Notes under the pieces: generated by a model
The model's input: the letters and a program-made list of their open reading frames with translations, nothing else
Databases searched by the model: none
Told to the model about the DNA's origin: nothing
Made by a program: the position numbers and the translations under genes
Assembly (NCBI GenBank): GCA_039545335.1
Contig: BCIN01000002.1
Coordinates: 248,001-312,000, forward strand
Reading direction: 5' to 3'
DNA: 64,000 bases
Origin: Kondoa subrosea
Taxonomy: Eukaryota
Shown here: positions 1,643-58,487 of the stretch, piece after piece
Position numbering within the stretch: position 1 is the first letter of the stretch
Layout: every line of letters begins with the position of its first letter

Positions 1643-2321
1643 TTTATTGTCACTCCAGCTTCTTCAATGGAATTCTTCTGGTATTGTGCGTTGTAGTTCT
1701 GCCAGGCGATCTTTCTCTGTTATTCTATTCGTCCTGTGTTTTCCACGACAGACTTTGTTGCTGCCAGACGTAATCCCACGTTCATTTGAATCTCCGAATG
1801 TCTGTCGAGACATACACTACACGTTGTGATGGCCGGCTCAGTAGGCGCTGGTGTCACGCTTTTCGTAAATGCGCAGGACGTCTCCTGCCTGACATTCTAG
1901 CTTGTTCTGCTCTGGCCAGTATGAGCTTGATGGTCTGTGCAGAATCTCCAGTCAGCGTTCTTCTACATTATCTCTGCGCCAGGGATAGCTCTATGCTCCG
2001 AGGGGGGCATTTTTTGCGCGTGCCAGCTTTCAGAATCAGTCAAGCGCATTTATTGGCCAAACCTGTCTTGGCTCGAAAAGGCCTTCACGCACGAAAATCG
2101 AAGGTTTTACGACGGCACGTCAAAACGTCAACTAGTGCAGTCCAACAATCCCTTTCGATATTTTCGCGGAACTTGAATTGGGTCCTAAGTGTTTCTTTGC
2201 ATGCTATGTGTGATAAACGTTTTGATACCTTTTCCATCCTCCTTCTTATCCATCATCCAAACCAAGTAATTCACTCCTCCTCGTCTCTGCTGTCTCCTCT
2301 AGTGCATCGTGCGAATTACAT

Positions 2322-2526
2322 GTTTCCGCAGGAAAAAAAAATTCCTGTGCGAATCTGGCTGTGATGCATCAGGCTCCTAGGAAGAGTGGTATGGCGTGCA
2401 AAAAGAAGCCTGGAAGCGGGACGAGAAAAGTAACCAAAAAATTTTCCGCCAAAAAATCCTGTTGCGAATCTGGCTGTGATGCTAGGAAGAGTGGTATGGC
2501 GTGCAAAAAGAAGCCTGAAGCGGGAC
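2322..2526. repeat. Imperfect tandem duplication (~100-120 bp period) covering the tRNA 3' end, terminator and downstream flank
   Basis: gcgaatctggctgtgatgc...ctaggaagagtggtatggcgtgcaaaaagaagcctg(g)aagcgggac occurs at ~2349-2422 and ~2464-2526, with small indels. Confidence 0.85.
2505..2509 (-). terminator. Pol III T-run terminator of the tRNA-Lys gene
   Basis: TTCTTTTT directly after the discriminator base on the minus strand. Confidence 0.65.
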
Positions 2527-2695
2527 TCGAACCCTGTAGAACATTTTTAGAATTTGGAAAATTTCGGGAAAGAAATGGCTAGACATACCGCAGCCTTTCG
2601 ATTAAAAGTCGAATGCTCTAGCCAATTGAGCTACCCTATATTTGTTTAGGCATGAGTAAACGAAGTCGGGTGGAGGGGTTGTTAATTTACCGGGC
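2512..2695 (-). tRNA. tRNA-Lys(UUU) split by two 55-nt GT-AG introns (exons 2695-2691, 2635-2589, 2533-2512)
   Basis: Joined exons read GCCCGGG TA GCTC AATTGGCTA GAGC A TTCGA CTTTTAA TCGAA AGGCT GCGGG TTCGAGT CCCGC TTCAGGC T. D, anticodon and T stems pair fully; acceptor stem has C4.A69 and two G.U pairs; A and B boxes intact. Confidence 0.8.
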
Positions 2696-2812
2696 AGGGG
2701 TCAACTGGTCTGATGTGGAGCGGAATTCCAAAAACACATATGAATATTCAACCAATTGGTTGTAGGGCATTTTGTACACACGACAGGCCGTAGTCAGTGC
2801 TGTATGCCTTAG

Positions 2813-3561
2813 TGCTCAGTAAGACCTGGCAAAGACAATCGAGAATCTGTTTCATCTTTCATCGAGATTTTGCAAAGACAACTAAGAATTTCGTTCATCG
2901 TTCAATTTCGGTCTATAGAGGACTGAGTAGAGCTCACCTCAATTATATTTGCATCAGAACTGCAATCGATAGCCGTTACTAGCCTTTTTTGGATGTAGTG
3001 ACAGCCTCAAGCTCTGAAGACTTTGTCAGATTGATTCGCGGCCAATCTTCTTTTGACACGATTGCATTGATAGAGTAAAGCATGATATAATGGAATCATA
3101 TTGAAGAGACTGTGCAGATGTGCTTGAGCAACGTTAGAATGAGGGGATTGAATGTTCTGAGACAGGTTTAAGCCAGTGTGACAATGACTTGCAGAAAGGA
3201 GCATTGCCATCATAAATGTCTGTTTAAGGAGTAGCTCGATAGCGTGGTGCAATAGCAACTGCCGAGTTTAGGCTGACCGAGCAGTTATGGAGGCATAGTT
3301 TTTGCACATGATCCGAACAACAGTCGAGAAACGAGACGGGATCATCGCGGCATAGCGAAGTCATTTGAAAGAGAAGGTAGTGCGTTGTAGTCGACTGTAA
3401 GGCGAATTACTGCTGATCTTTGGTTTGATGGCCCGCCGAACAAGTGTTGACATCGAAGTCACAGCAATGCAATCGATTCCGCATGTCGTACCACTTGAAT
3501 GAGGTAGCGAGGGTGCTCGTGGATAGCACTCTTGAAGAGTCAAGAATCGCAGAACGTACAT
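2813..3561 (-). CDS. Possible small multi-exon gene of unknown function
   Basis: Several GT..AG intron-like segments and protein-like pieces (e.g. LCRDDPVSFLDCCSDHVQKLCLHNCS); no recognisable family. Confidence 0.2.
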
Positions 3562-3611: not shown

Positions 3612-6600
3612 ATGTCTGCAGATATTTCACTATTGCCTGCAACCGTACGCGAGAACAATGCAGAGACGAAGGCGCAATCTGCAAGTCGTCGAAGCAGCTT
3701 TGCAGGCTCAAGGTCACAGAAGCAGACGAAAGGCAAGAGGCAGAGCATCAGAGCGTGCAAAGCGCGAATAGAGAAGACAAGACAACAAATGCTAGCGAAT
3801 TGCCGCACACCATGGTTCCAGGACAAGGTCTCCCTTCAATTTGCTTTGGGAATGCTTCTCTTCCTACATCGGCCAGTCCGACTCACTAAGAAGCGTTCAT
3901 GACTCGACAGCTCACCCACGGTCGAAAGCGCAAGCATGCCTTGTCTAGACAGAACTCTGCAGCTGTGAGCTCTGCTGCCAACTTGGCTGATGTCGAGGAA
4001 GGCAACAACAAGGTGTGTTCCTGCTCTCAACGCTTCATAAACAACTCACATGATGCTCAACAGAGACCCAAGCTCTTGACTCGAGGCAATCACAGCAGCG
4101 AGCCCGATTTGCGTGAATCATCTCGCAAGCGACACCGTACTTCCTCTTCATCAGGCAATGCAGGAGAGACTGCGCAAGAGGAGCTTGATCGTACTGTTCG
4201 TCGGCGCGAGCTAGAGGACAAGACGAGACTTGCGAATGTATTACCAGCTAAGACCGACAACGACAAATCTACACCCTTGCCAGCTTCTTCACCCGCTAGA
4301 GCTTTGCGTTCACCAATTCGGCAAACTCGAGTTCATGCTTCAGCTAAATCACCTCGTTTCAGTCATCGCCGACGTTTGACGATTTACAGTGATCAGACTT
4401 TTCGTCCGGGAACCAATGTTCCTGGTACACCTTTTGTCGACTCTTTTGCTCAAGCAGCATTTCAATCTCCTTTACCTTTATCCCAGTCTGAATCCTTGTT
4501 GGAGGATTTAGATTCGAAATTGAATCGTTTCCCACCTATTTTTCGTCATTCTTCAATAGATCAGTCTATGAACAGCAGTATTGTTTTCGAACAGCAAGAA
4601 GAGGATGTAGAGATGCAATCAGTAGCAGATTCAAGAAGAATTCTGCCGTTGATTTTCGATTTTGATCCGATTCCTAAAGTGGTTGCTCATTCTCGTTTCA
4701 CCCAAGAAGAAGAAGAGGAACAAAGAGTTGTGTTACCAGAATCTTCACCTTCTAATGGAGGAACAGGAGCGGATTCAGTTGGTGAAAGGCAATCACCTTC
4801 ACCTGATCGACCTGTCTCTGCACCAGTCTTTATACCAAGACTCACTACTTTGGTTACAGGAGGAAGAGGAGTGAGACCTAGATTGTACCGAAAGGGAAAG
4901 TATGACTCTTCTTCAGATATCGAATTGAAAGAGGAAGGGAATGGCACGACGAGCGAGGATGAATTAGCTAATCAATTGGGTTCGGTGGTTTTGCAAGACG
5001 ATGAAGGACGTTTTAGAGAAAAGATGAAACGAAGAGTTGGTCAAGGTGGTAGAAAGAGCGAAGGATTGAAAGGTTTGAGCGAAGCAGTTCTCTCCTCAAA
5101 TTTACAGAAATACTGATTTCTTTGGGTTTGGAAAGGCAAGAAGACGCTGCGAATGAAGATCTTGCCAGAACCATACAAGAATGGTGATCAGACTTCAAGC
5201 GATCCTTTGGCTCGATTTGCTGATCAGACCATTCGCTGATGTGTCGACCAAGCGCAATCAAAGGGAAAGGAATCTGGGTTGCGGTGTTTATAATGGGATT
5301 CGCGAGTTTCATGTGCTGATACAAGTGCAATTCCACGCTTTTTGTATGATCTTACGCATAATTTGAGACCGCAGCATTTTCGAGTGTTGAACTTCTTGAA
5401 AGCGCGTGAATGGCTTCTTCTTCTGTTCCCATTCACAATCTTGTAATTATGCCTCCGAAACCTGCAGCAACACCTAAAGCGGTGCCTCGTGATCCAGCAA
5501 CGGATCAGCTTGTGTTTGTTCTCCTCAAAGTGCCTTTGCATGAAATTGCTTCTGATGATTTTCTTGCAGTCATCGCGCTTTGAGTCAGGCAGGCAAGAAT
5601 CTCGCTGCCGCTCTACAACTACAAGGTAAGCTGTCCCTAGCCATCTACAATATAGGTCTGACCCTCTGTCCAATGTCAAACAGAACAAGTCATTCGGCAC
5701 AGAGAGCTGTTACCAAAGTACATGCTTCTACTTTGCTTGCAAAACCTGTAGCTGATCAGTGTGGTATCAATTTCCAGCGCCTTCGCCTATGCCGAGTATT
5801 CGAACCGCACGGAACCATTAGATCCTCAATCAGATGAATACTTGGCTTACTCCAAAGACATCTTTGTCAAGTCTCGAGGGAACGATATGAGAATCATCTG
5901 GCAGGAGATTATGCAATTAGCTAGTCGCGAAGAACGAATAGCCTTACGAGATACGAATAAACTCTGTCATGAGTGAGTTCTTCCTCTGTACTGGTTTTGA
6001 GCGAAAGCTGTAGTCTTATGTGGCTTTTACATCAGCATCTATGAGGAAATGGAATTCCGCGAACTGACTTTGAAGAAAGTCGTCTTCAATGCTAGATCAT
6101 CAAGTGAAATCTTGACTTTGGATTGGAGAGCGAGAAGAATCAATCCACCAGCCAAACCGAAACTCTTCTCTACCAGTCAGATTCCACCTACATTCAAAGC
6201 TGTTCCTATTCTCAGGCCGACGAAATGGTATGAGAGGGATAAAATCGTTATTAATCAAGTTTATTTCGAAACCATTGTGTTTGAAGGTGAGCAGGACATT
6301 CTCAGATTTGGGTTCGTCTTGGTTCTGAGAAAGCTTTTCACAGAGTTCCGTCGACCTTCCTACATCGACTCATTAGACTGGACATCAAAGGCATCCTTCC
6401 ATGTTGGCGTCGAAGTCCCCTCTGGTCATGTTCTGCTTGAATCCTCTTTAGTGTCTGAGCCGTTGTATGTCGCGCCTGGTCATGAACATGCGTCTGTTCT
6501 GGTCGAAAGATGGACAGCGTATGAAAACCGGGAATGGATCGAAGAAGGTGAAGTTGGAATAGATGAAGATGAGGAAGAGGAGGAAGAGGAGGAAGAGGAA

Positions 6601-13548: not shown

Positions 13549-16500
13549 CTAGATTTCCTGTTGCTGCAACACGACGTCTATAACATCTCTTTGCTTGATT
13601 CGCAAGACCAGATCTGCTGGAATTCGTTTTGCCAAATAGCCGGCAAGTAGAACTCGTCCTTCAGCTTCTGCCAAGTCTTCTGCCTTCACATCTAATTGTG
13701 CTCTAGTTGCCTTAGGCAGGTGAGTGTACTGTACGGCAAAGCTGTCAGATAAGTTCACGATTACATGGCGACAACTCACATAGTGCAATAGTATTGCGTC
13801 ATCATGGTGTACACTTCCATTAAGCAGCCCCTTCTGCTTGCCAAGCTTTGCGATGACTTTGATGAAGCTTTTGCCCTGCAATTCCCTTAGCGGCTGCAAT
13901 TCCCACTTTCTTTGTACAATCATTTCGCCTGCAGGCAAGAGCGAGGGCGATCCGTGACTATCGATCTGTGTGCAGCCTAGTCCTGCCAGCTCATCCAAGG
14001 CTTGATCAACTTTCCGGGACGCAAAGACGTTCTTGCTTAAATCTGCTGGACATCCGTAGTAACTAGGATTAGAATGAAGTCGTCTAGCCCAGAATGTCGT
14101 AGACAGTGTTTTGAGTAGATCATGACGGCTCGATGGTTTTTCCGTCAAAGATTGCAGTAAGAAGAGTTGGAAATGGTTGTCTTGGCTGAAGGGAGATTCG
14201 AGAAGAAGACCGTCTCTTAGGAAACGGGAATATATATCAGCTTGAGAGGGTTGACATAGAATCAGACATTGGTTGTTGATTCCTGAAGAAGCCGCTGCAG
14301 CGCAACTCTGCATTTGGAGAAGATCGTTGATATCGTAGTCACGCAGCGTCCTTGAGCCCTCTTTGTCTACGATGGCATCTTGTGTTCCTGCGACGATCAC
14401 GAGAGGTGCAACAAGATCGTCTAACCAAGAACAGCCTTTTGTTGCGATCAGAAGCCTAGCGGCGCCAGCTTTCCAAGTTTGCAGCATTAATTTCTTTTCC
14501 ATTGGTGCCATTCCTTCGTAAAAGAGAGCTATTCCATGCAGTAGGGCCTCTTTCGAGTCATGATCCCTGATCTGCTGACTGCACAGCTCCAATACTTCCC
14601 CATTTCCGACAAAAGCCAAGGTTTCCAGATCAGAGCCGGAATGTTTGATCAGTGAGAGGGCGGCAATCAAACATTGATTGCGAGAGGAGACGAAGCAGAT
14701 TGCTGATGTGCCACTCGCTTGGACAGCGTGATGAATAGGTTTAATCATGTTGCGAAGTAAAGTAGTGGGATTCGTAGTAGACGAGAACGTTTGAAAGCTT
14801 GTCTCCAGCGAAGTTGGTCGATCTGCACTTGCGAAGGAATATACGTGTTCGCTTCGGCAATGCAGCCAAGCAGCTTGATCCAGTGGGTTCAACATTGGCG
14901 CGGAAAGACATATTCGCCGTAGCGAAGTAGGTAGACGTGAGAGAACGCTCTCGTATGCACTATTCAGGCTGTGAACCTCGTCGGCTATGACCAAAGACAC
15001 GCCGTCACCGAGACTGTCAAGTAGCGCGAGCGGTTGATCGGCTAGGATGTAAGGATTGGCAATAAAGCAGCGTGGACCGCTGTCTGAATCTTTTTTGAAA
15101 GCCTGAATGTCGTTTGCAGATATTAACACCTTGCAACGTATTCCAATGGAATTGAAATATTGTTTGATTGTACGATTGATGATAAGTGCGGTTCTCGGCA
15201 AAGATAGAATGAGTATGGATGCATTGGAAGATTTAGTGATACAATTCCTAGTAAAGCTTTAGATTTGGCTTCGCGTGCCTGTCTGAAGACTGACCAGATG
15301 CTCAACAATATGATTTGCATGCGATTGAAATGATCGGGTATGCACAAAAGGCAATTAGCCGTGGTATGACAGATTGAATGATATGTTTGCGTTTCTATTG
15401 GATCCAGACTGCCAGGATTGCCGATGAGACACTTGCGTAAACCCGGAACCTCAGAAACGTTAAATAAGGGGATGTCTTCTTGTAATGGTGTCTTGTATGT
15501 TGATTGCACTGGCATGTGCACCCCTTCGCAGGGCACTATCACGATTTCGTCGCTGTCCATCCATCGATCGGAATTGAGATGAACATTGAAGTGCGAAGGG
15601 AGCTTTGGTACTGTCGTCAAGAAGTCGTACGTAAGCTGACTCATCGAAGCTTGTAGCTGTACATTTGTTATTTGTAGTATGTTGATGTCGTCGGCATCCG
15701 ATAACCACAGCCAGAACATTTCCATATTTCCATGAATTTTATTTGTCCAAGTGAAGTCTTTCGTAGCCACTACTTGAATCCGTAACAGATCGGAAGCCAA
15801 TGGTTCCAACACGAATTCGAAAGTAAAACGAGGTAGATGTGAGGCAGCTTCTTGAGCTATTGTTCCAAGCCGTTCGTTCAGATGTATGAGCTCTCCAAGC
15901 TCTTTAGGTGGTAGGGCAGCAAGATCGCGCGCATCCCAGTCATCAGCGTATTGGCTAATGTTGTAAACTATATCCGCCGGAACCTCAAATTGGCCGATCG
16001 GATTGTCGAAGGGCCACATGCGACCTGGGTTGTACTCAGTATATGCTTCTCACCGATAGATTGAACTCACGCTCAATGGCTTTGCAAAGCGAAAGGATGA
16101 CACGCGATGATTCAGACCATTTTCGGCTCATTGCAATCTCAAACATTGCTCGCGCAATACGTGCCGCGTTTTGAGCAACATATGCAGAGTCACTAACTAG
16201 GGCAAAGTCTTCGATGAAGCGCCGGGAGATATAGCTCTGTAGCAAGACATTGACTTTGCCCTGCGTTGTTTGGACAGCCCCCTGTGCAAGGTCAGCAATA
16301 CACGTAGAATGGTATGACAACGTACTCTGATGTCGCAAGGCGCACTTTCCGATAGGGTCTTCAATTCCGGCACTTCTGAATCGCGCACAGCAATCTGCTC
16401 GAACTCGTGGCTTTGGCTGAGCACCCAAAGTGTATCGGCTTCGGTCATTCGTGGCTTGAAGATGGGATTGAAGGTTTCGATACTCTTTGCATTTAGATAA

Positions 16501-19500
16501 AATTTCGATGCCGTGATGCCTAAATCTGTTGACGTGAGCGAGCCACTGTCTGGGTCGAAGATAACCATCTCATAAGAGGCCAATTGCTTAGCTGCTATAG
16601 TCATGAGCTGGAACCTCTTGCTGCCCAACGAGGGATCGTTTTCGACATCGACTTGAGTTAGACCGTAAACCCTGAACGATAAATGAGCATAGTCGGTATT
16701 GGGCTCGGAAATCTCACATGGGATTCTTGCGCATTCTGACAAACAAGAAGGTATAACCAATCCACCGAACACCTTCATCGATTGATGAAACTGTTCCAAG
16801 AGCTATTTCTGCATTCAAAGCATTGAGAATGCCTTGTACGAATCTATAGGATGATGAGAAATTGTCGTGGACTAGGCCAATGCGACTTACTTCGATTCGA
16901 TAGGATGTTGCTCAGTTATAGCTGAAACGTAGTGGTCTACTTTATCGGCTGTAGTGCAGATGTAGCCGACACCGTGCGTCTCATATTGAGGTCGACCAGC
17001 ACGACCAAAAATCTATCAAAGAGCTATGCGTAAGCTTTCTTGATCCAAGACAGAGAGCTGAGACTGACTTGTAATACATCGAGTATTGATAAATCGACAA
17101 AGCTACCTTTCGAGGCATCGTAGATCTGAGTGCCTTTGATGACAACTGCATAGGCTGGGAGATTGACTCCCCAAGCTAAAGTAGCTGTGCAGACAAGGAC
17201 CTGCTCTCAAAGTCAGGAATCGACCTCTACTCTCAAGGAAAGACCTCGCTTTGGTAACATTCTGCTCAAACATCCTTTCGCTAAGTGTACGGTCAGACCT
17301 CAGCATGCCTGCATGATGTATACTGCCAAAATCTATATCAGTAACGAAACTGAAATAGCCTGAACCACGGACCCAAAGCCATCCAGAAACAGCTCGCGCA
17401 TTTCGCGATTTCTGGATCCGCCAACATCCCGCTTGAACAGGTTGTATTTATCATTTAGTGTGGCATCCACTAGATCATGTAGACCTTCAGCTTTCACACA
17501 ATCTCGTAACATCATAGCAGTCTTGACTGTTTCTTTCCGAGCATGAACAAAGACCATAACTTGATGACCATCCCGCAGCAGATCAGCGACCTGTCGAGTC
17601 ATCCTTTACATTGAGACGATTCTGATGTCTCGAGCAGTGCTACAACCGACCTTGTCGAATGTAGCGATATCAAGATTTTCCCTTGAGGCGGAACTATTGA
17701 CCTTTCCTTTGACCCCAATGAAATGTTGCTCAAGTGGTACAGGTCTGAAGCTTTGATCGAAGTAGAAGAGACCCTGATATCGATTGACTCTGCAAAGGGA
17801 ATCACTGCCACTCGGTAGAGGGTTGAGTGTTCAGAACATACCCTAAGAAGTCTGCCACATCAATATAATTGGGAAGAGTAGCTGACAGACCAACAATACG
17901 TATAAGTAATTGACTAGATTCGACCTATGTTGGCTTGTGAGTCAAAGACCTTGATTTTGATCATAGATTGCTTACCATGCGCAGTGTTCTTGCGACAATC
18001 GTTTCTATCACAGCTCCACGATCATCATGTAGTAAGTGGACTTCATCGATGATCAGAAGTCGGACTTTCTGCTTTGACTATTAGTAACAATCTCCGAACT
18101 GCTGATCAACTGACCGATGTCAATTCCTCTTCCGAGCTGCTCTTATTCGTCACGACAGCCCATTTCTCAGGTGTGGTCACAATAACCTGAGTTTCACTGA
18201 TTTCTTTTCTTGTCAGTTGCATATCACCTTGTTTCAATGAATTTCATCAGGCTTTCGTCTTCTCTTTCGCTCGAATCCCTTACCAGTCAATTCTTTCACC
18301 TGTACACCGATCCATCCAAGACGTTTACTCATCTTTTTGGTAATTTCAGCAGCCAGAGCTTTCATAGGTGCAACATAAACGATTTTGAAATCATACGAAG
18401 ATAAACGAGTTCGACCAGCGGAAGTTGGACCTGGTAAAATGAGCGAAGAGTTTTGTGATATAGCTCGAAGAACAGCTAAAACGGCAACATCGGTTTTACC
18501 CTGTTATTAGGATGAGTAAAAGGCCCTCAGGAGTCGGGTAGAAAGGGAAATAAGGACGAACAGCACCTGTTGGCGCGCAGACCAACATATTCTCATTTGA
18601 TTCGTATGCGACAGGGTAGACAACTGATTGTAATCGATTAAGAGTAGTATACCCCTGGTAAGACTGTGAGCATAATCTGATGCGGCAAGCTTGTAGGCAC
18701 CAACAGGAAAGGAGCCTCGAGCTAGCGGATCTAGTTCTGATATGTTTCGTAATCGTTCTTCCGATCGCATCGGCATGATTGAAGGAGTTGGTATAATGAC
18801 TTCTTCGTATTTCTGTCAGTAAATGGACTAAGTCAGGAAGCTGACAAGACATCCTTCAGTACTGACCTCATGAGCTATACGTTTTGTCCCTGTTGGCAAA
18901 CTGTATTTCTGGCCGCTGAAGGAAAGCGTGCTTCCGCTTTGTGTTGCAGCATAAATATGTGGATATTTTGGTTCTTCAGGAACGCCTCTCTATGATAGAG
19001 ACACTTCATCAGCTTCCCTCTGCAGGAAAATTGTGTCTACTCACATCCTTACCGCTCGCTAATGGTCGAGAGCTAGCAGCTTGCAATTCTGCTTCGCGAA
19101 TGCGTTGCATCTCGTTGAAAGTCAAGACAGGTTCAGCAGCACTCTTTTGTTGGGCATGATTATGCCTCTTCGCTTCATTTCTAGCTCTCTTAGCTTCTGC
19201 TTTGCTTTGCAAGGTTTCGAAAATGATCTGCGCTTGCGGAACATATCCACCTCTTGCAGCTGCTGAAACGTTCGTAGATACTACAGGTAGTGGTGGTAGT
19301 AGTGTTTGTTCGCGAGAAGAAGGTTCCCAAAGAGCAGCCTTTGGGTTCAGAGGTGAAATCGATTTGACATTCTCCCGCTTCAGAGTATTGCGATGAGACA
19401 AAGCTTGAGGAATAGTGTCTATACGATCATAGCCGACCAATTCAACTAGTTGTACTGCTATCACATCGTCCGAAGTTTCAGAAGTGAGTAGTTGTAGAGC

Positions 19501-22564: not shown

Positions 22565-25355
22565 ATGACAACCAATCACGTTGATCCTCGAGATGTGCCA
22601 GATCCAGCAAGCAACAGTAACTTCTACGAAGCAGTCACTACACACTTGCATTTGGATTGGACTGTTGACTTTGCAGCAAAGCTCATTCATGGTTCAGCTG
22701 AGCATACAGTCTCAATCAAGAAGGACAACGTAGACACTTTCATCCTGGACACGAGCTATCTCAAATTAGACAAAGTACAAGTCGAAGGCAAGCAAGTGCA
22801 GTACAAGTTACAGGAGAGAGCCGCTGTGTTTGGGTCCACGCTCCATGTCCCTCTTGGTCCAGCGACAAAGAAAGGGCAGAACCTGAAAGTCAAGATCTCC
22901 TATTCGACAACTTCTGAATGTACCGCTCTAGGATGGCTCGAGAAAGAGCAGACATCAGATGGTACTCATCCTTTCGTCTACTCTCAATGTCAAGTCAGTT
23001 TCGCATTGTTCTCGTTTGGCTTGAGCTTATGTTGAATACTTACGTGCATAGGCAATTCATGCTCGAAGTCTGTTCCCTTGTCAAGATACTCCAGCAGTTA
23101 AATTCACCTACTCCGCTGCTGTTCAATCTTCTCTTGATGGATGCTCTGTTCTCCTTTCAGCTCAACGTGTTTCTCCCCCTTCAACTGAATCAGCAGGTAA
23201 AGCTGGAACGATTTATCACTACAATCAGCCTGTTTGTCTACTCTTTAGTGTCTATAAAAGCTATTTAAATAAAGTTAAAATAGGTTCCGATGCCTTCGTA
23301 CCTTGTCGCGATCGCTGGAGGAAGCCTAGCTTACTCATCGCTCGGAAAGAGAAGCGGAGTATGGGCTGAGCCGAGTGTACTGAAAGCTGCTGCTGTATGT
23401 ACTCTTTCACTTTTCTAAGCGGTATACTGATATTTGATGAATCTAAGTGGGAATTTGAGTCTACCGAGACATTTGTCGATACGGCTGAGAAACTAGTTGG
23501 CAAGTATGAATGGGGAACATACGATGTGGTACGCTACTCCATGCTGTGTATCTCTATTTTGCTAATAGCTGCGCTTACTACAGCTCGTTCTGCCAAAATC
23601 TTTCCCTTATGGTGGAATGGAGGTGAGACCAAACAATAAATTCTTTTGTCTTCAGGACTAATGTTGTTACAGAACACTAACTTGACATTCCTTACTCCCA
23701 CCCTGCTAGCTGGTGATAAATCATTGACCGATGTCATTGCGCACGAAGCTTCTCACTCGTGGTTCGGAAACCTCATCGGCTGTCATGTTTGTCGATGATT
23801 CATTTTTACTGGTCAAGTCTGATCTTGCGCCCACTATAGGACTGGCAATCATTCTGGCTCAACGAAGGTGCGACCATTATAGGAACTGGTAATGAAAATT
23901 TCACCACTTACTGAATTTACAAAGGCTTCACCACTTATCTTGAAAGACTTATTCAACGAGAATTATATGGCGAAGCAGCTCGAGGTTTCTCATATATTAT
24001 TGGTTATCGAGCTTTAGTCGCTTCCCTCAAGGAATTCAACAAGACACCGAGGTGTAGGTTTGTCAATAGAGCGAGATCCCTTTCCAACCTTTCTCTTGCA
24101 GATCAAAGACTGCATATTGATTATGAACATGGGACAGATCCTGATGATGCTTTCTGTATGTCCTCCTCCTTGCTAGCCATATCAGTCCATGCTAATCTGA
24201 AAGCAGCAACTGTACCATACGACAGTGAGCTCTGCACTAACGCTCGCGTAACACAGATGCTTAAATATGCTTCCAGAGGGCTCCAACTTTTTGCTCTACT
24301 TGGAAAGAACAGTTGGCGGACTAGACCTCTTCTTACCTTACATTCGAAACTACGTACAGACATTCCGCAATACCGCTATCACCACGCAGATGTTCAAGGA
24401 TCATTTGTTGAACTATTTCGCTAAAAATCATGGAGATGAAGTCAGCAACAAGCTAAATCAAATTGACTGGAATGTAAGCTTGCTGCTTCTGCCGAACGAA
24501 TCATGTGCTTAAGCGATACCTTCTGAAGGCTTGGTTGTTTGGCGAAGGAGTTGTAAGTGTTGTAACCCAACCTGGAAGCGCAACAATGGCTTACTGTCCA
24601 AAACAGACGCTTCCTGTGCAGATGACCTATGACACTTCGCTCGGTGCGTCCAATTGGTTCGTATGCTGTGATCCAGCTTACTGAAGTCAATATACAGCCG
24701 ACAAAGCTTACGCTCTCGCCGACCGATGGAATCAAGCTCGTTCGAGCGAAGCAAAGGCTTCTGAATTTAGCAGGCAGGACCTGAAAGACTTCAATTCCAA
24801 TCAAGTCGGTACGTGGATGGAAGAAGATCGAGTCTCGCGCTCATACTTTTCTCCATTTGGTGTACAGTCGTTTTCCTCGAGCGTTTAGAAGGCATGGATC
24901 CATTCTCTGCTCAGCTTCTAGATAGAATGGAAGCGGTCTATGGATTCGATAGCACTTCTTCATCTGAGATCCGTTTACGTTGGTACAATTTGTCTCTACA
25001 GCCTGAATCCGGCGGAAAGTATGCCCGTTCGGCTTGCGAATGGTTAGTTTGCGCTATGAGCACGAATCTGGCGCTAATTCGTGGGGACTGACAGGGTTGC
25101 CGATAAGGGAAGAATGAAGTGAGCAGTCTTTACCAAAGCGGTCTTCCTGTTTTCTTACGAGTCGGTATAGATTCTGCCGACCTATCTATCGTCAATGCTT
25201 TGCACTGGACAAAGAGCTTGCCCGGAAAACATTCAAAGCCAACGAAACGTTCTACCATCCAATTGCGCGAGCGATGATAGCGAAGGTCAGGCCTGCTCAC
25301 ATCATGAACGAATATTTGCTAAATTTATTTGCGTCAGGATTTGGGACTAAACTGA
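22565..25355 (+). CDS. LAP2: Leukotriene A4 hydrolase-like M1 aminopeptidase
   Basis: [37 protein letters not shown] and GRMKFCRP motifs. Confidence 0.92.
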
Positions 25356-53446: not shown

Positions 53447-54645
53447 TTAGGTGCTACATCTCAACAGACTATCTACAAACGAATTCTTCCTTGTTTCTCG
53501 TCAATCGAATTCCCTTCAAATAGCAGCCTGACCTCTCACATCCGAAGTTTGCCATTTCAATTCCCTCTCAGCAGCAATGTTGAGCAGATTCAACGACGCT
53601 CTGAACTTCTCCGATTCGCTTGGNNNNNNNNNNNNNNNNNNNNNNNNNNNNNNNNNNNNNNNNNNNNNNNNNNNNNNNNNNNNNNNNNNNNNNNNNNNNN
53701 NNNNNNNNNNNNNNNNNNNNNNNNNNNNNNNNNNNNNNNNNNNNNNNNNNNNNNNNNNNNNNNNNNNNNNNNNNNNNNNNNNNNNNNNNNNNNNNNNNNN
53801 NNNNNNNNNNNNNNNNNNNNNNNNNNNNNNNNNNNNNNNNNNNNNNNNNNNNNNNNNNNNNNNNNNNNNNNNNNNNNNNNNNNNNNNNNNNNNNNNNNNN
53901 NNNNNNNNNNNNNNNNNNNNNNNNNNNNNNNNNNNNNNNNNNNNNNNNNNNNNNNNNNNNNNNNNNNNNNNNNNNNNNNNNNNNNNNNNNNNNNNNNNNN
54001 NNNNNNNNNNNNNNNNNNNNNNNNNNNNNNNNNNNNNNNNNNNNNNNNNNNNNNNNNNNNNNNNNNNNNNNNNNNNNNNNNNNNNNNNNNNNNNNNNNNN
54101 NNNNNNNNNNNNNNNNNNNNNNNNNNNNNNNNNNNNNNNNNNNNNNNNNNNNNNNNNNNNNNNNNNNNNNNNNNNNNNNNNNNNNNNNNNNNNNNNNNNN
54201 NNNNNNNNNNNNNNNNNNNNNNNNNNNNNNNNNNNNNNNNNNNNNNNNNNNNNNNNNNNNNNNNNNNNNNNNNNNNNNNNNNNNNNNNNNNNNNNNNNNN
54301 NNNNNNNNNNNNNNNNNNNNNNNNNNNNNNNNNNNNNNNNNNNNNNNNNNNNNNNNNNNNNNNNNNNNNNNNNNNNNNNNNNNNNNNNNNNNNNNNNNNN
54401 NNNNNNNNNNNNNNNNNNNNNNNNNNNNNNNNNNNNNNNNNNNNNNNNNNNNNNNNNNNNNNNNNNNNNNNNNNNNNNNNNNNNNNNNNNNNNNNNNNNN
54501 NNNGCTTTCGCAAAAACATCGAAATCTTTATTTTCAGACTTTTGGCTGATAAATTGCCGCCGGTTCGGGAATCTTTGCACTGCCTGCCTTTGTGTGGGTA
54601 TTGGTGGGAGAGATGAATAATGATGTAGTGAGGGAAGAGGAGTAT
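53447..54645 (-). repeat. Left arm of an inverted duplication (copy of ~56965-58487), interior unsequenced
   Basis: 53516-53623 is the reverse complement of 58313-58420 and 54504-54630 of ~56985-57110, with few substitutions. Confidence 0.9.
53624..54503. other. Assembly gap (880 N)
   Basis: Run of N. Confidence 1.
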
Positions 54646-56964: not shown

Positions 56965-58487
56965 CTGGGGCTACTTCTTTCCTTACTACATCATTATTCA
57001 TCTATCCCACCAATCCCCACACAAAGGCAGGCAGTGCAAAGATTCCCGAACCGGCGGCAATTTATCAGCCAAAAGTCTGAAAATAAAGATTTCGATGTTT
57101 TTGCGAAAGCGACATTCAATCGTCAAAGTGAAGCAGGGTATACAAGGAATGCATGCGCAGGCAATGACAAACGACCGAGAAGCTGTTTTCATCCCTTTGT
57201 GCACAGTCAAGACTTGCGATTCGTTTTTAGGTGCCAAGAGCTAGGCTAAGAATAAAGCTTGGTAAAAAGGCTTCTTGACTTTGCACCTATTTGCTCTCTT
57301 GTCCTTGGTCAACGTGTTGAATCTTCATTCGAGCTTTCATCGTCGCAAAACACCGCAAGACAGCAGCACTCTTTCGCAAGACTTCAAATATCTTTTTATA
57401 TCTCTCGCAAGCTCGTCGGGTTCATTTTAGCATATAGCATCATCATGACCGAGATCCCTCTACTTCCACAAGCTCTGCTCGACTTGGCTGTTACTGCCGT
57501 TCGAGGCAAACCTTCAACTTTGGGCGCGGGACACGATTGCACTCCTTCTATGCAATCTATTCTTGACGCTTTCAAGACTCAAGGCAACAATGATCGAGCT
57601 ATGTTGTTGGCTTTGTTGCAAGCAAAGAAAGCAGAGGATGAGGTGAGATTCCTTCCAATTTCAAGGTTGTTGCGCACGAAACTGAGGTGATCTCTTTCGC
57701 GTTGCGATAGCGCTTGGCAGCATTGAGCTACGCTTTGGCCGTGCAAGCGTTGACGGTAGTAGCAAGTCAGCAGGTTGCAACTCCTCAGCATCTCTTTGTT
57801 CCAGGTCAGTAATAGTGTCCTGCCTCTAGATGCCAAGACATTTTTGCTCACCTTTGTCTTGTGTCCTGATAGAACAATCTCGTTCAAGCTCTGTTGCTTC
57901 ACTCTCTTCTCGTCAATCTGTTCGCTCTTCTGCTTCAGATGAAGAATCNGTCGCAACAAGCATCTCAAGAAGATCGTCTCAAACCAGTCAAACTTCCCGC
58001 AAACGCAAATCACCGGCTCCACTTGAAGGTCCATTATCTCATTCGGACGTCATGAATGCCTTGCAAGCCAAGTTGAAAGCTCGTTCCAATTCCCCTCCTC
58101 CTTCCTCTTCTTCTTCGCTTCCCGCCGAACCACTTCCGAAACGTCGCAAATCAGCTACTCCTCCTTCTTCCAGCCGTACTACTCCTTTAGCAATGCAACT
58201 CCCTCCTCTTCCTTCTCTATCACCTCGCTCTGTCGCCGCTCCTCGTTATCAGCTGCCCCTTTCTTCGACTGATTCAGCTCGTCAGTCGCCTCGCCCCGCG
58301 GCGTCAGCCACACCAAGCGAATCGGAGAAGTTCAGAGCGTCGTTGAATCTGCTCAACATTGCTGCTGAGAGGGAATTGAAATGGCAAACTTCGGATGTGA
58401 GAGGTCAAGCTGCTGTTTGAAGGGATTTCGATCGAGGAGAAGGCAGAAAATGTTTGTAGATAGCTGCTTTAAATGTAGTACTTCTAA
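56965..58487 (+). repeat. Right arm of the inverted duplication
   Basis: Matches the left arm at both sequenced ends. Confidence 0.9.
57445..58420 (+). CDS. Small Ser/Pro-rich protein with an N-terminal helical block (ILDAFKTQGNNDRAMLLALLQAKKAEDER); second copy inferred in the left arm
   Basis: ATG 57445, two ~60-70 nt introns, C-terminus ...LNLLNIAAERELKWQTSDVRGQAAV (AAI in the inverted copy). Confidence 0.7.

Follow-up and report, generated by a model that had tools for sequence, protein, structure and literature searches.

On the minus strand of a 64,000-nt stretch of Kondoa subrosea DNA (contig BCIN01000002.1, positions 248,001 to 312,000; the whole stretch is called the window here), positions 2695-2512 hold a tRNA-Lys(UUU) gene that is split by two inserts, as a preliminary description of this DNA had observed. 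By every sequence test that we applied, the inserts are introns of the spliceosomal type, with two blemishes: an A at donor position +5 of the first insert and the branch motif of the second. We lean toward the view that this is a nuclear tRNA-Lys(UUU) gene which has acquired two U2-type GT-AG introns and which would be spliced and functional. The arrangement is real and probably novel and, if the introns are spliced and the tRNA is used, would represent a new host class for mRNA-type introns in the structural RNA genes of fungi.

The gene consists of three exons, and all of its coordinates are given on the minus strand. Exon 1 (2695-2691) comprises only 5 nt, tRNA positions 1-5 in the 5′ strand of the acceptor stem, of which four positions pair. 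Insert 1 (2690-2636, 55 nt) starts with GTAAAT, ends with TATAG and lies within the acceptor stem between tRNA positions 5 and 6. Exon 2 (2635-2589, 47 nt; tRNA positions 6-51) carries the last two acceptor pairs, the D arm, the anticodon arm, the variable loop and the first three T-stem bases, and contains both the anticodon TTT (2606-2604) and the A box (2633-2622). Insert 2 (2588-2534, 55 nt), which starts with GTATGT and ends with CTACAG, separates tRNA positions 51 and 52 in the T stem. Exon 3 (2533-2512, 22 nt; tRNA positions 52-73) provides the remainder of the T arm, the 3′ acceptor strand and a discriminator T, and its first part forms the B box (2533-2523). A run of five T (2509-2505) resembling an RNA polymerase III (Pol III) terminator starts 3 nt past the last tRNA base. 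These coordinates match the minus-strand sequence exactly, and the sequence and ARAGORN (see below) agree in placing the inserts at 5/6 and 51/52 and nowhere else, the anticodon loop being continuous at 37/38; the preliminary description was correct on all of these counts. Sliding either intron boundary by 1 base in either direction leaves the spliced product unchanged, so the GT-AG ends are one of three equivalent registers for each insert. Both mature junctions (2691/2635 and 2589/2533) share the local context CG/GGT, which may reflect an insertion-site preference.

The three exons were joined by script (5 + 47 + 22 nt), and the product was submitted to ARAGORN. The spliced 74-nt construct was called as tRNA-Lys(ttt), with the D, anticodon and 5-bp T stems intact and an acceptor stem of seven pairs. 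The conserved bases T8, A14, G18, G19, T33, G53, T54, T55, C56, A58 and C61 could be read from the ARAGORN output. In contrast, no tRNA was called by ARAGORN from the unspliced locus or after removal of either insert singly, even when introns were allowed in the anticodon loop, and the raw 64-kb window yielded 0 tRNAs. Rfam gave no match of any kind in the window at gathering thresholds; at lax thresholds its sole tRNA match was the exon 2 region (2561-2640), which reached 28.4 bits against the gathering score of 29 (RF00005). The preliminary description had proposed to compare the spliced with the genomic form in a tRNA finder, and the spliced form alone was accepted; its expectation that standard finders would miss such a gene was borne out. 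Its claim that splicing restores a perfect T stem holds, all 5 bp being intact. The acceptor stem is not perfect: C4 is opposed to A69 and two pairs are G.U.

The frequency with which such a restoration arises by chance was estimated by scanning the full window, on either strand, for GT..AG stretches of 40-70 nt and removing each of them, either singly (14,716 constructs) or in nearby pairs (121,643 constructs). ARAGORN recognized a tRNA in four of these 136,359 constructs, all four of which overlap this locus and one of which is the clean 74-nt form. No other tRNA, split or whole, was found in the window by ARAGORN, by Rfam at lax thresholds, by the removal scan or by searches for A- and B-box patterns.

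The inserts were compared with a reference set of 31 homology-supported introns, which were obtained by spliced protein-to-DNA alignment from two genes of the window. A Sec63/Brr2-like helicase gene contributed 15 introns that were found with all five homologues, those found with fewer than four of the five having been discarded, and an LTA4-hydrolase-like (LTA4H-like) gene contributed 16 that were found with all seven homologues. Both gene models are open after intron removal and contain no stops. As the aligner permitted GT-AG introns only, the termini of the reference introns are not an independent result. The reference introns span 44-61 nt (median 52, n = 31), and both inserts, at 55 nt, fall within this range. 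Their donors have the general form GTNNGT, with G at +5 in 30 of the 31 and T at +6 in 21; C or T occupies position -3 of the acceptor in 26; and the branch motif CTNAY is located 6-25 nt from the 3′ end in 24, the strict motif being missing in the remaining seven.

Insert 2 scores well at both ends. Its donor, GTATGT, obtained a position weight matrix (PWM) score of 8.4, above 30 of the 31 references, and its acceptor, CAG, a score of 7.8, above all 31. In insert 1, the branch-like hexamer ACTCAT fits CTNAY, with its A 18 nt from the 3′ end, and recurs in the helicase intron at 18,501-18,561, while the acceptor TAG scores above 26 of the 31 references. When the exon-intron boundary of insert 1 is set against the U1-complementary sequence CAG/GTAAGT, 7 of 9 positions agree, which equals the maximum among the references. 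The preliminary description had likened the signals of both inserts to those of neighboring mRNA introns. The likeness stands for the length and acceptor of both inserts, for the donor of insert 2 and for the strict branch motif of insert 1; it is partial for the donor of insert 1 and fails for the strict branch motif of insert 2.

Among 400,000 random segments of the window drawn at intron lengths, 1,502 had GT..AG ends; the score of insert 1 was reached by 21 segments and that of insert 2 by none. Two arbitrary inserts that both bear GT..AG ends are rarely expected. Neither insert is structured, as judged by folding z-scores of +0.4 and +1.3 relative to mononucleotide shuffles; their longest T runs (3 and 4 T, compared with 2-5 in the reference introns) are uninformative. 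The two inserts show no similarity to each other. With respect to the features of introner-type mobile elements, no other copy of either insert is present in the 64-kb window, no target-site duplication exceeds 1 nt, and both inserts stand at single-copy depth in the contig sets described below.

An A-box-like pattern (0 mismatches) and a B-box pattern each occur solely here in the window, and neither is interrupted. The two boxes are 88 nt apart; upstream of the A box, insert 1 is 2 nt away and exon 1 is 57 nt away. A type 2 Pol III gene has, by consensus, an A box and a B box within the gene and a T-run terminator after it, and the boxes and the T5 run of this locus are consistent with Pol III transcription. 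Because the A box is downstream of intron 1, a functional gene needs a transcription start upstream of 2695. Under the model of a spliced, functional gene, the precursor would start upstream of exon 1, either by Pol III from an AT-rich, TATA-like stretch at 2748-2737 on the minus strand (-53 to -42 from tRNA position 1), which from its sequence is a candidate site for such an upstream start, or by RNA polymerase II (Pol II). The spliceosome would recognize each 55-nt intron by intron definition and remove both, the acceptor and T stems would form only after splicing, and RNase P, RNase Z and CCA addition would then finish the tRNA. The introns would most likely have originated from excised introns that were reverse-spliced into the tRNA or its precursor, followed by reverse transcription and recombination. 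The transcription, splicing, function and origin of this gene are what we infer, whereas its anatomy, its fit to the local intron signals and its single-copy status in the contig sets described below are observed.

Several observations weigh against this model. The donor of insert 1, GTAAAT, has an A at +5 that is seen in none of the 31 references, and because of this A its PWM score is as low as 3.5, above only three of the 31 and in the lowest tenth. The branch-like motif of insert 2, TCTAAA/CTAAA, is not a strict CTNAY, which seven of the 31 references lack as well. In the spliced form, the C4.A69 mismatch, the two G.U pairs of the acceptor stem and the discriminator T could be early decay. 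The promoter geometry is a further difficulty. Directed by an A box, Pol III starts about 20 nt upstream of it, and here such a start would fall inside intron 1, omitting exon 1 and its donor. Moreover, a TAAATTAA stretch at 2682-2689 (minus strand, at the start of intron 1) is located 49-56 nt upstream of the A box; if transcription began inside intron 1, TFIIIB would be expected at roughly the position of TAAATTAA. Finally, in view of the copy numbers of tRNA genes in yeasts, it would be unusual for the commoner Lys codon to be served by just one gene, and that one interrupted twice, and further Lys(UUU) genes may be present elsewhere in the genome. In favor of a working gene, AAA accounts for 43 of the 75 Lys codons in the helicase and LTA4H-like gene models. 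In standard decoding, AAA codons need a tRNA with a UUU anticodon, so such a tRNA must exist somewhere in the genome.

The copy number and integrity of the locus were assessed in two sets of DNA contigs (X1 and X2, ~19 Mb each), which come from one sample that is possibly the source of the window and are therefore not independent of it. In each set, one contig spans 2488/2489-2848 with 0 differences and at a depth equal to that of the single-copy flanks. Alignment of the two sets at 80% likeness showed no further sequence on the exons and no joint that skips an insert, as an intronless copy would give; this is weak evidence, as some records are filtered out and a gap in such an alignment is no proof of absence. 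Matches as short as 45 nt with 6 differences were detected at a repeat upstream of the gene, which indicates that short matches are detectable. As the contigs run unbroken through the 47-nt exon, no 31-mer of this exon is repeated elsewhere; the contigs break at a tandem duplication on the 3′ side and at the upstream dispersed repeat, not at the exon edges. These contig data speak, if weakly, against an error of assembly and against the presence of the 47-nt exon in a further copy.

The tandem duplication (2526-2451 and 2422-2337, minus strand) comprises the last 15 nt of the tRNA and ~60-70 nt of trailer. The copy at 2422-2337 has 1-nt and 10-nt insertions, and a T5 run is present in each copy. 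The dispersed repeat (2783-2866, strand unspecified) lies 88-171 nt upstream of the tRNA. Its summed contig depth is ~6-11 times that of single-copy sequence in X1 and X2, where pieces of several long contigs match it at ~85-95%. No second copy of the repeat was found in the window, and it has no Rfam match, exon 2 being the only match in the flanks searched (2200-3400). The repeat could be the end of a mobile element or a shared upstream element.

The search was extended to other collections. The exact 47-nt exon had 0 matches in viral contigs, and the exact 42-nt core of this exon had 0 matches in metagenome contigs and 0 in contigs of prokaryote genomes. A degenerate search of the metagenome contigs for a Lys(UUU) anticodon loop and a GT..AG insert just before the B box returned 10 loci, which were rejected as relatives of the gene: they are uninterrupted tRNA genes located downstream of a chance CTTTTAA, or the metagenome contig L002. 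At 401-476 of this contig, a gene resembling tRNA-Lys(UUU) has an insert of ~45 nt directly behind the anticodon-loop motif, and by its sequence the insert looks like an archaeal-type anticodon-loop intron that is unrelated to the window.

We consider it quite possible, although it is not the reading that we prefer, that the gene has been inactivated. Introns or intron-derived DNA would have entered one of several Lys(UUU) copies and left a young, unspliced pseudogene, while the other copies supply the tRNA. The flaws listed above would fit such a history: the C4.A69 mismatch, the two G.U pairs and the discriminator T, the atypical A at +5 in the donor of insert 1, and the location of the A box downstream of intron 1, so that a normal Pol III start would skip exon 1. 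The 3′-end tandem duplication is recent and suggests a locus in flux. However, if the first intron had killed this 74-bp gene, the independent gain of a second one is hard to account for, and all stems but for one pair, the conserved tRNA bases that were read, both promoter boxes and the splice signals are intact. The lack of any other match of at least 80% to the 47-nt exon in the ~19 Mb of contigs also speaks against a family of sister copies, but weakly, given that the records were filtered. It appears improbable that the locus instead encodes a Pol II-made, spliced non-coding RNA with a tRNA-like module that does not serve in decoding. Exon 1 does need an upstream start, a TATA-like stretch is found at -53 to -42, and spliceosomal signals are normally read on Pol II transcripts, the class in which 10.1101/2025.06.17.660180 places spliceosomal introns. 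Nevertheless, the spliced product is a complete standard cloverleaf in which the anticodon loop and the promoter boxes are intact, and the T5 run follows directly after the 3′ end. The tRNA is antisense between two plus-strand reading frames, and we found no minus-strand gene, flanking exon or open reading frame (ORF) that could carry the tRNA pieces as exons or that suggests a longer transcript.

The inserts might also be taken for non-canonical tRNA introns that are excised by an endonuclease and joined by a ligase, as in Cyanidioschyzon merolae or in nucleomorphs, with GT-AG ends that are coincidental; we regard this as highly improbable. Nuclear tRNA introns are located at 37/38, a restriction that is considered crucial for the eukaryal enzyme (excerpted text of PMC3728597). 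According to the same excerpt, ectopic and multiple nuclear tRNA introns do exist in C. merolae, where the ectopic introns are processed via a bulge-helix-bulge (BHB) by the tRNA splicing endonuclease, and the tRNA introns of nucleomorphs are mostly without a BHB. We set both cleavage sites of the inserts in a BHB geometry that agrees with the description in PMC3728597. Over three registers, insert 1 formed 0, 0 and 0 of the 4 pairs of the central helix and insert 2 formed 1, 2 and 0 of them, with no flanking-helix pattern, and the inserts are unstructured as noted above. In addition, both inserts interrupt stems, where the tRNA splicing endonuclease has no known action; these stems belong to the mature domain, which is thought to be needed for recognition by the eukaryal enzyme (PMC3728597, same excerpt). 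In their donor, branch and acceptor signals and in their length, the inserts agree with mRNA introns to a degree that far exceeds chance. Judged by these sequence tests, the inserts are not endonuclease-type introns. An assembly artefact or a chance resemblance is scarcely credible. Both contig sets do come from one sample, possibly the one that gave the window, and lack independence in this respect; still, contigs of both sets cover 2488/2489-2848 with 0 differences at single-copy depth, and the removal scan (136,359 constructs) and the random-segment control (400,000 segments) both oppose coincidence.

The preliminary description inferred that this lineage may mature tRNAs through the spliceosome, a wider proposal than a spliced, functional gene; the window contains a single tRNA locus. 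We consider it possible, but less likely than not, that the spliceosome is a routine tRNA-maturation enzyme in this lineage, with the present gene as the sole source of tRNA-Lys(UUU) and with many other tRNA genes likewise split and invisible to finders. If it were true, the decoding of AAA would require that the spliceosome act twice on a small, structured and possibly Pol III-made RNA, eukaryotes would possess a further, unrelated route of tRNA splicing, and the locus would directly record a gain of introns through reverse splicing into abundant RNAs distant from the spliceosomal active site. Confirmed removal of the two introns would make the spliceosome a tRNA-processing enzyme, crossing the separate intron classes of eukaryotes. 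If the gene works, the spliceosome acts on the precursor of a tRNA that cannot adopt its mature fold before splicing, and tRNA joins U6, U2, U1, U5, U3 and rRNA among the structural RNAs that mRNA-type introns have invaded. The idea that such invasion requires nearness to the spliceosomal catalytic center would be weakened. Tools of the tRNAscan-SE or ARAGORN type may find too few of the tRNA genes in intron-dense fungi. The locus also provides a small system in which intron gain and the working of a split Pol III promoter can be tested. A tRNA of this kind would surprise specialists in tRNA and in splicing, provided that it is spliced and used.

The window is nuclear DNA of an intron-dense fungus, with a GC content of ~46%. 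Its Pfam matches include pieces of a Sec63-domain helicase, an M1 peptidase, Sir2, an HMG box, a sedolisin pro-domain, a Y-family polymerase and a MYND finger. Intron density is very high: the helicase gene (~13.5-19.9 kb, minus strand) has its 15 introns in 2,917 nt, in the part at 15295-18985, and the LTA4H-like gene (22,601-25,192, plus strand), with 1,737 nt of coding sequence, is interrupted by 16 introns, each 48-59 nt long. The LTA4H-like protein has 10 relatives, eight of which are named by organism; seven of these eight belong to Rhodosporidiobolus, Sporobolomyces, Rhodotorula and Puccinia, with 42-49% identity, and the eighth to Sympodiomycopsis. A taxonomy look-up places Rhodosporidiobolus in the Pucciniomycotina, and we take Sporobolomyces, Rhodotorula and Puccinia to belong there as well. 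The host is an intron-dense basidiomycete yeast; by protein similarity, its nearest relatives with a name are red yeasts of the Pucciniomycotina.

The reading frame at 3890-5116 (plus strand) has one relative in the protein collection, P0162, with 48% identity, and that at 13549-15258 (minus strand) likewise has one, P0001, with 73% identity; a longest contig of 57,633 nt is recorded for P0162 as well as for P0001, which suggests a single syntenic contig from a related organism. No Pfam families were found in the ORFs at 454-1410, 1786-2364 and 3890-5116, and an Atlas look-up of the first gave weak leads only (<0.9). A run of 880 N occupies 53624-54503, a single N is present at 57949, and a dip in GC content at 52-56 kb coincides with the masked stretch.

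Spliceosomal introns have been found in U6, U2, U5, U1 and rRNA genes, with up to four in one fungal U6 gene, and a reverse-splicing origin is discussed for the introns of small nuclear RNA (snRNA) genes in fungi (excerpts from PMC5855946). In S. pombe, the intron of the sole U6 gene is removed by the spliceosome (excerpts from PMC5855946 and PMC5832005), and U6 is given as a Pol III-transcribed snRNA in a preprint abstract; together, these statements provide a precedent for the splicing of a Pol III product. The excerpts from PMC5855946 and PMC5832005 also list introns in U6, U2, U1 and U5 of Rhodotorula hasegawae (= Erythrobasidium hasegawianum). A taxonomy look-up assigns this yeast to the Pucciniomycotina, and the LTA4H-like protein has its best named relatives in this subphylum as well. 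Spliceosomal introns also occur in the U3 small nucleolar RNA genes of many fungi, and according to a paper of 2017 on fungal U3, frequent interruption among small structured RNAs is known for U3 and U6 only (PMC5832005). The three intron types of eukaryotes are unrelated, and the spliceosomal type resides in mRNAs and other Pol II transcripts, according to 10.1101/2025.06.17.660180. A full-text literature search, which has most subscription journals outside its coverage, retrieved no description of a tRNA gene with spliceosomal introns; this agrees with the preliminary description, which knew of no spliceosome-spliced tRNA. Bhattacharya and colleagues reportedly described, in 2000, spliceosomal introns in the rRNA genes of some ascomycetes. 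The lineage with these rRNA introns is ascomycete, and the lineage of the present gene is basidiomycete.

The split tRNA-Lys(UUU) gene shares features with each of these systems. Like the canonical introns at 37/38 that are removed by the tRNA splicing endonuclease (SEN/TSEN) and a ligase, the two inserts interrupt a nuclear tRNA gene and have to be removed before it can function, whereas their position, structure and sequence signals all differ. C. merolae and the nucleomorphs of cryptomonads similarly have more than one intron per tRNA gene, located outside 37/38 and missed by standard finders (excerpted text of PMC3728597). The introns of C. merolae are, however, defined by a BHB, and here no BHB is possible and spliceosome signals are found instead. 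In common with the ascomycete rRNA introns, spliceosomal-type introns reside in a structural RNA gene outside the Pol II class, but the host RNA and the polymerase are others. The resemblance to the introns of fungal snRNA and U3 genes extends to their short length, to 5′ splice, branch and 3′ splice sites that are canonical apart from the donor of intron 1 and the branch motif of intron 2, in an otherwise unconserved sequence, and to their location inside a conserved structural RNA, and the known cases include a yeast of the Pucciniomycotina. In contrast to the snRNAs, the host here is a tRNA, which is neither part of the spliceosome nor close to its active site and which has a splicing pathway of its own. 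Moreover, unlike the snRNA and U3 introns, both introns of this gene cut helices that must form before the tRNA end-processing enzymes act.

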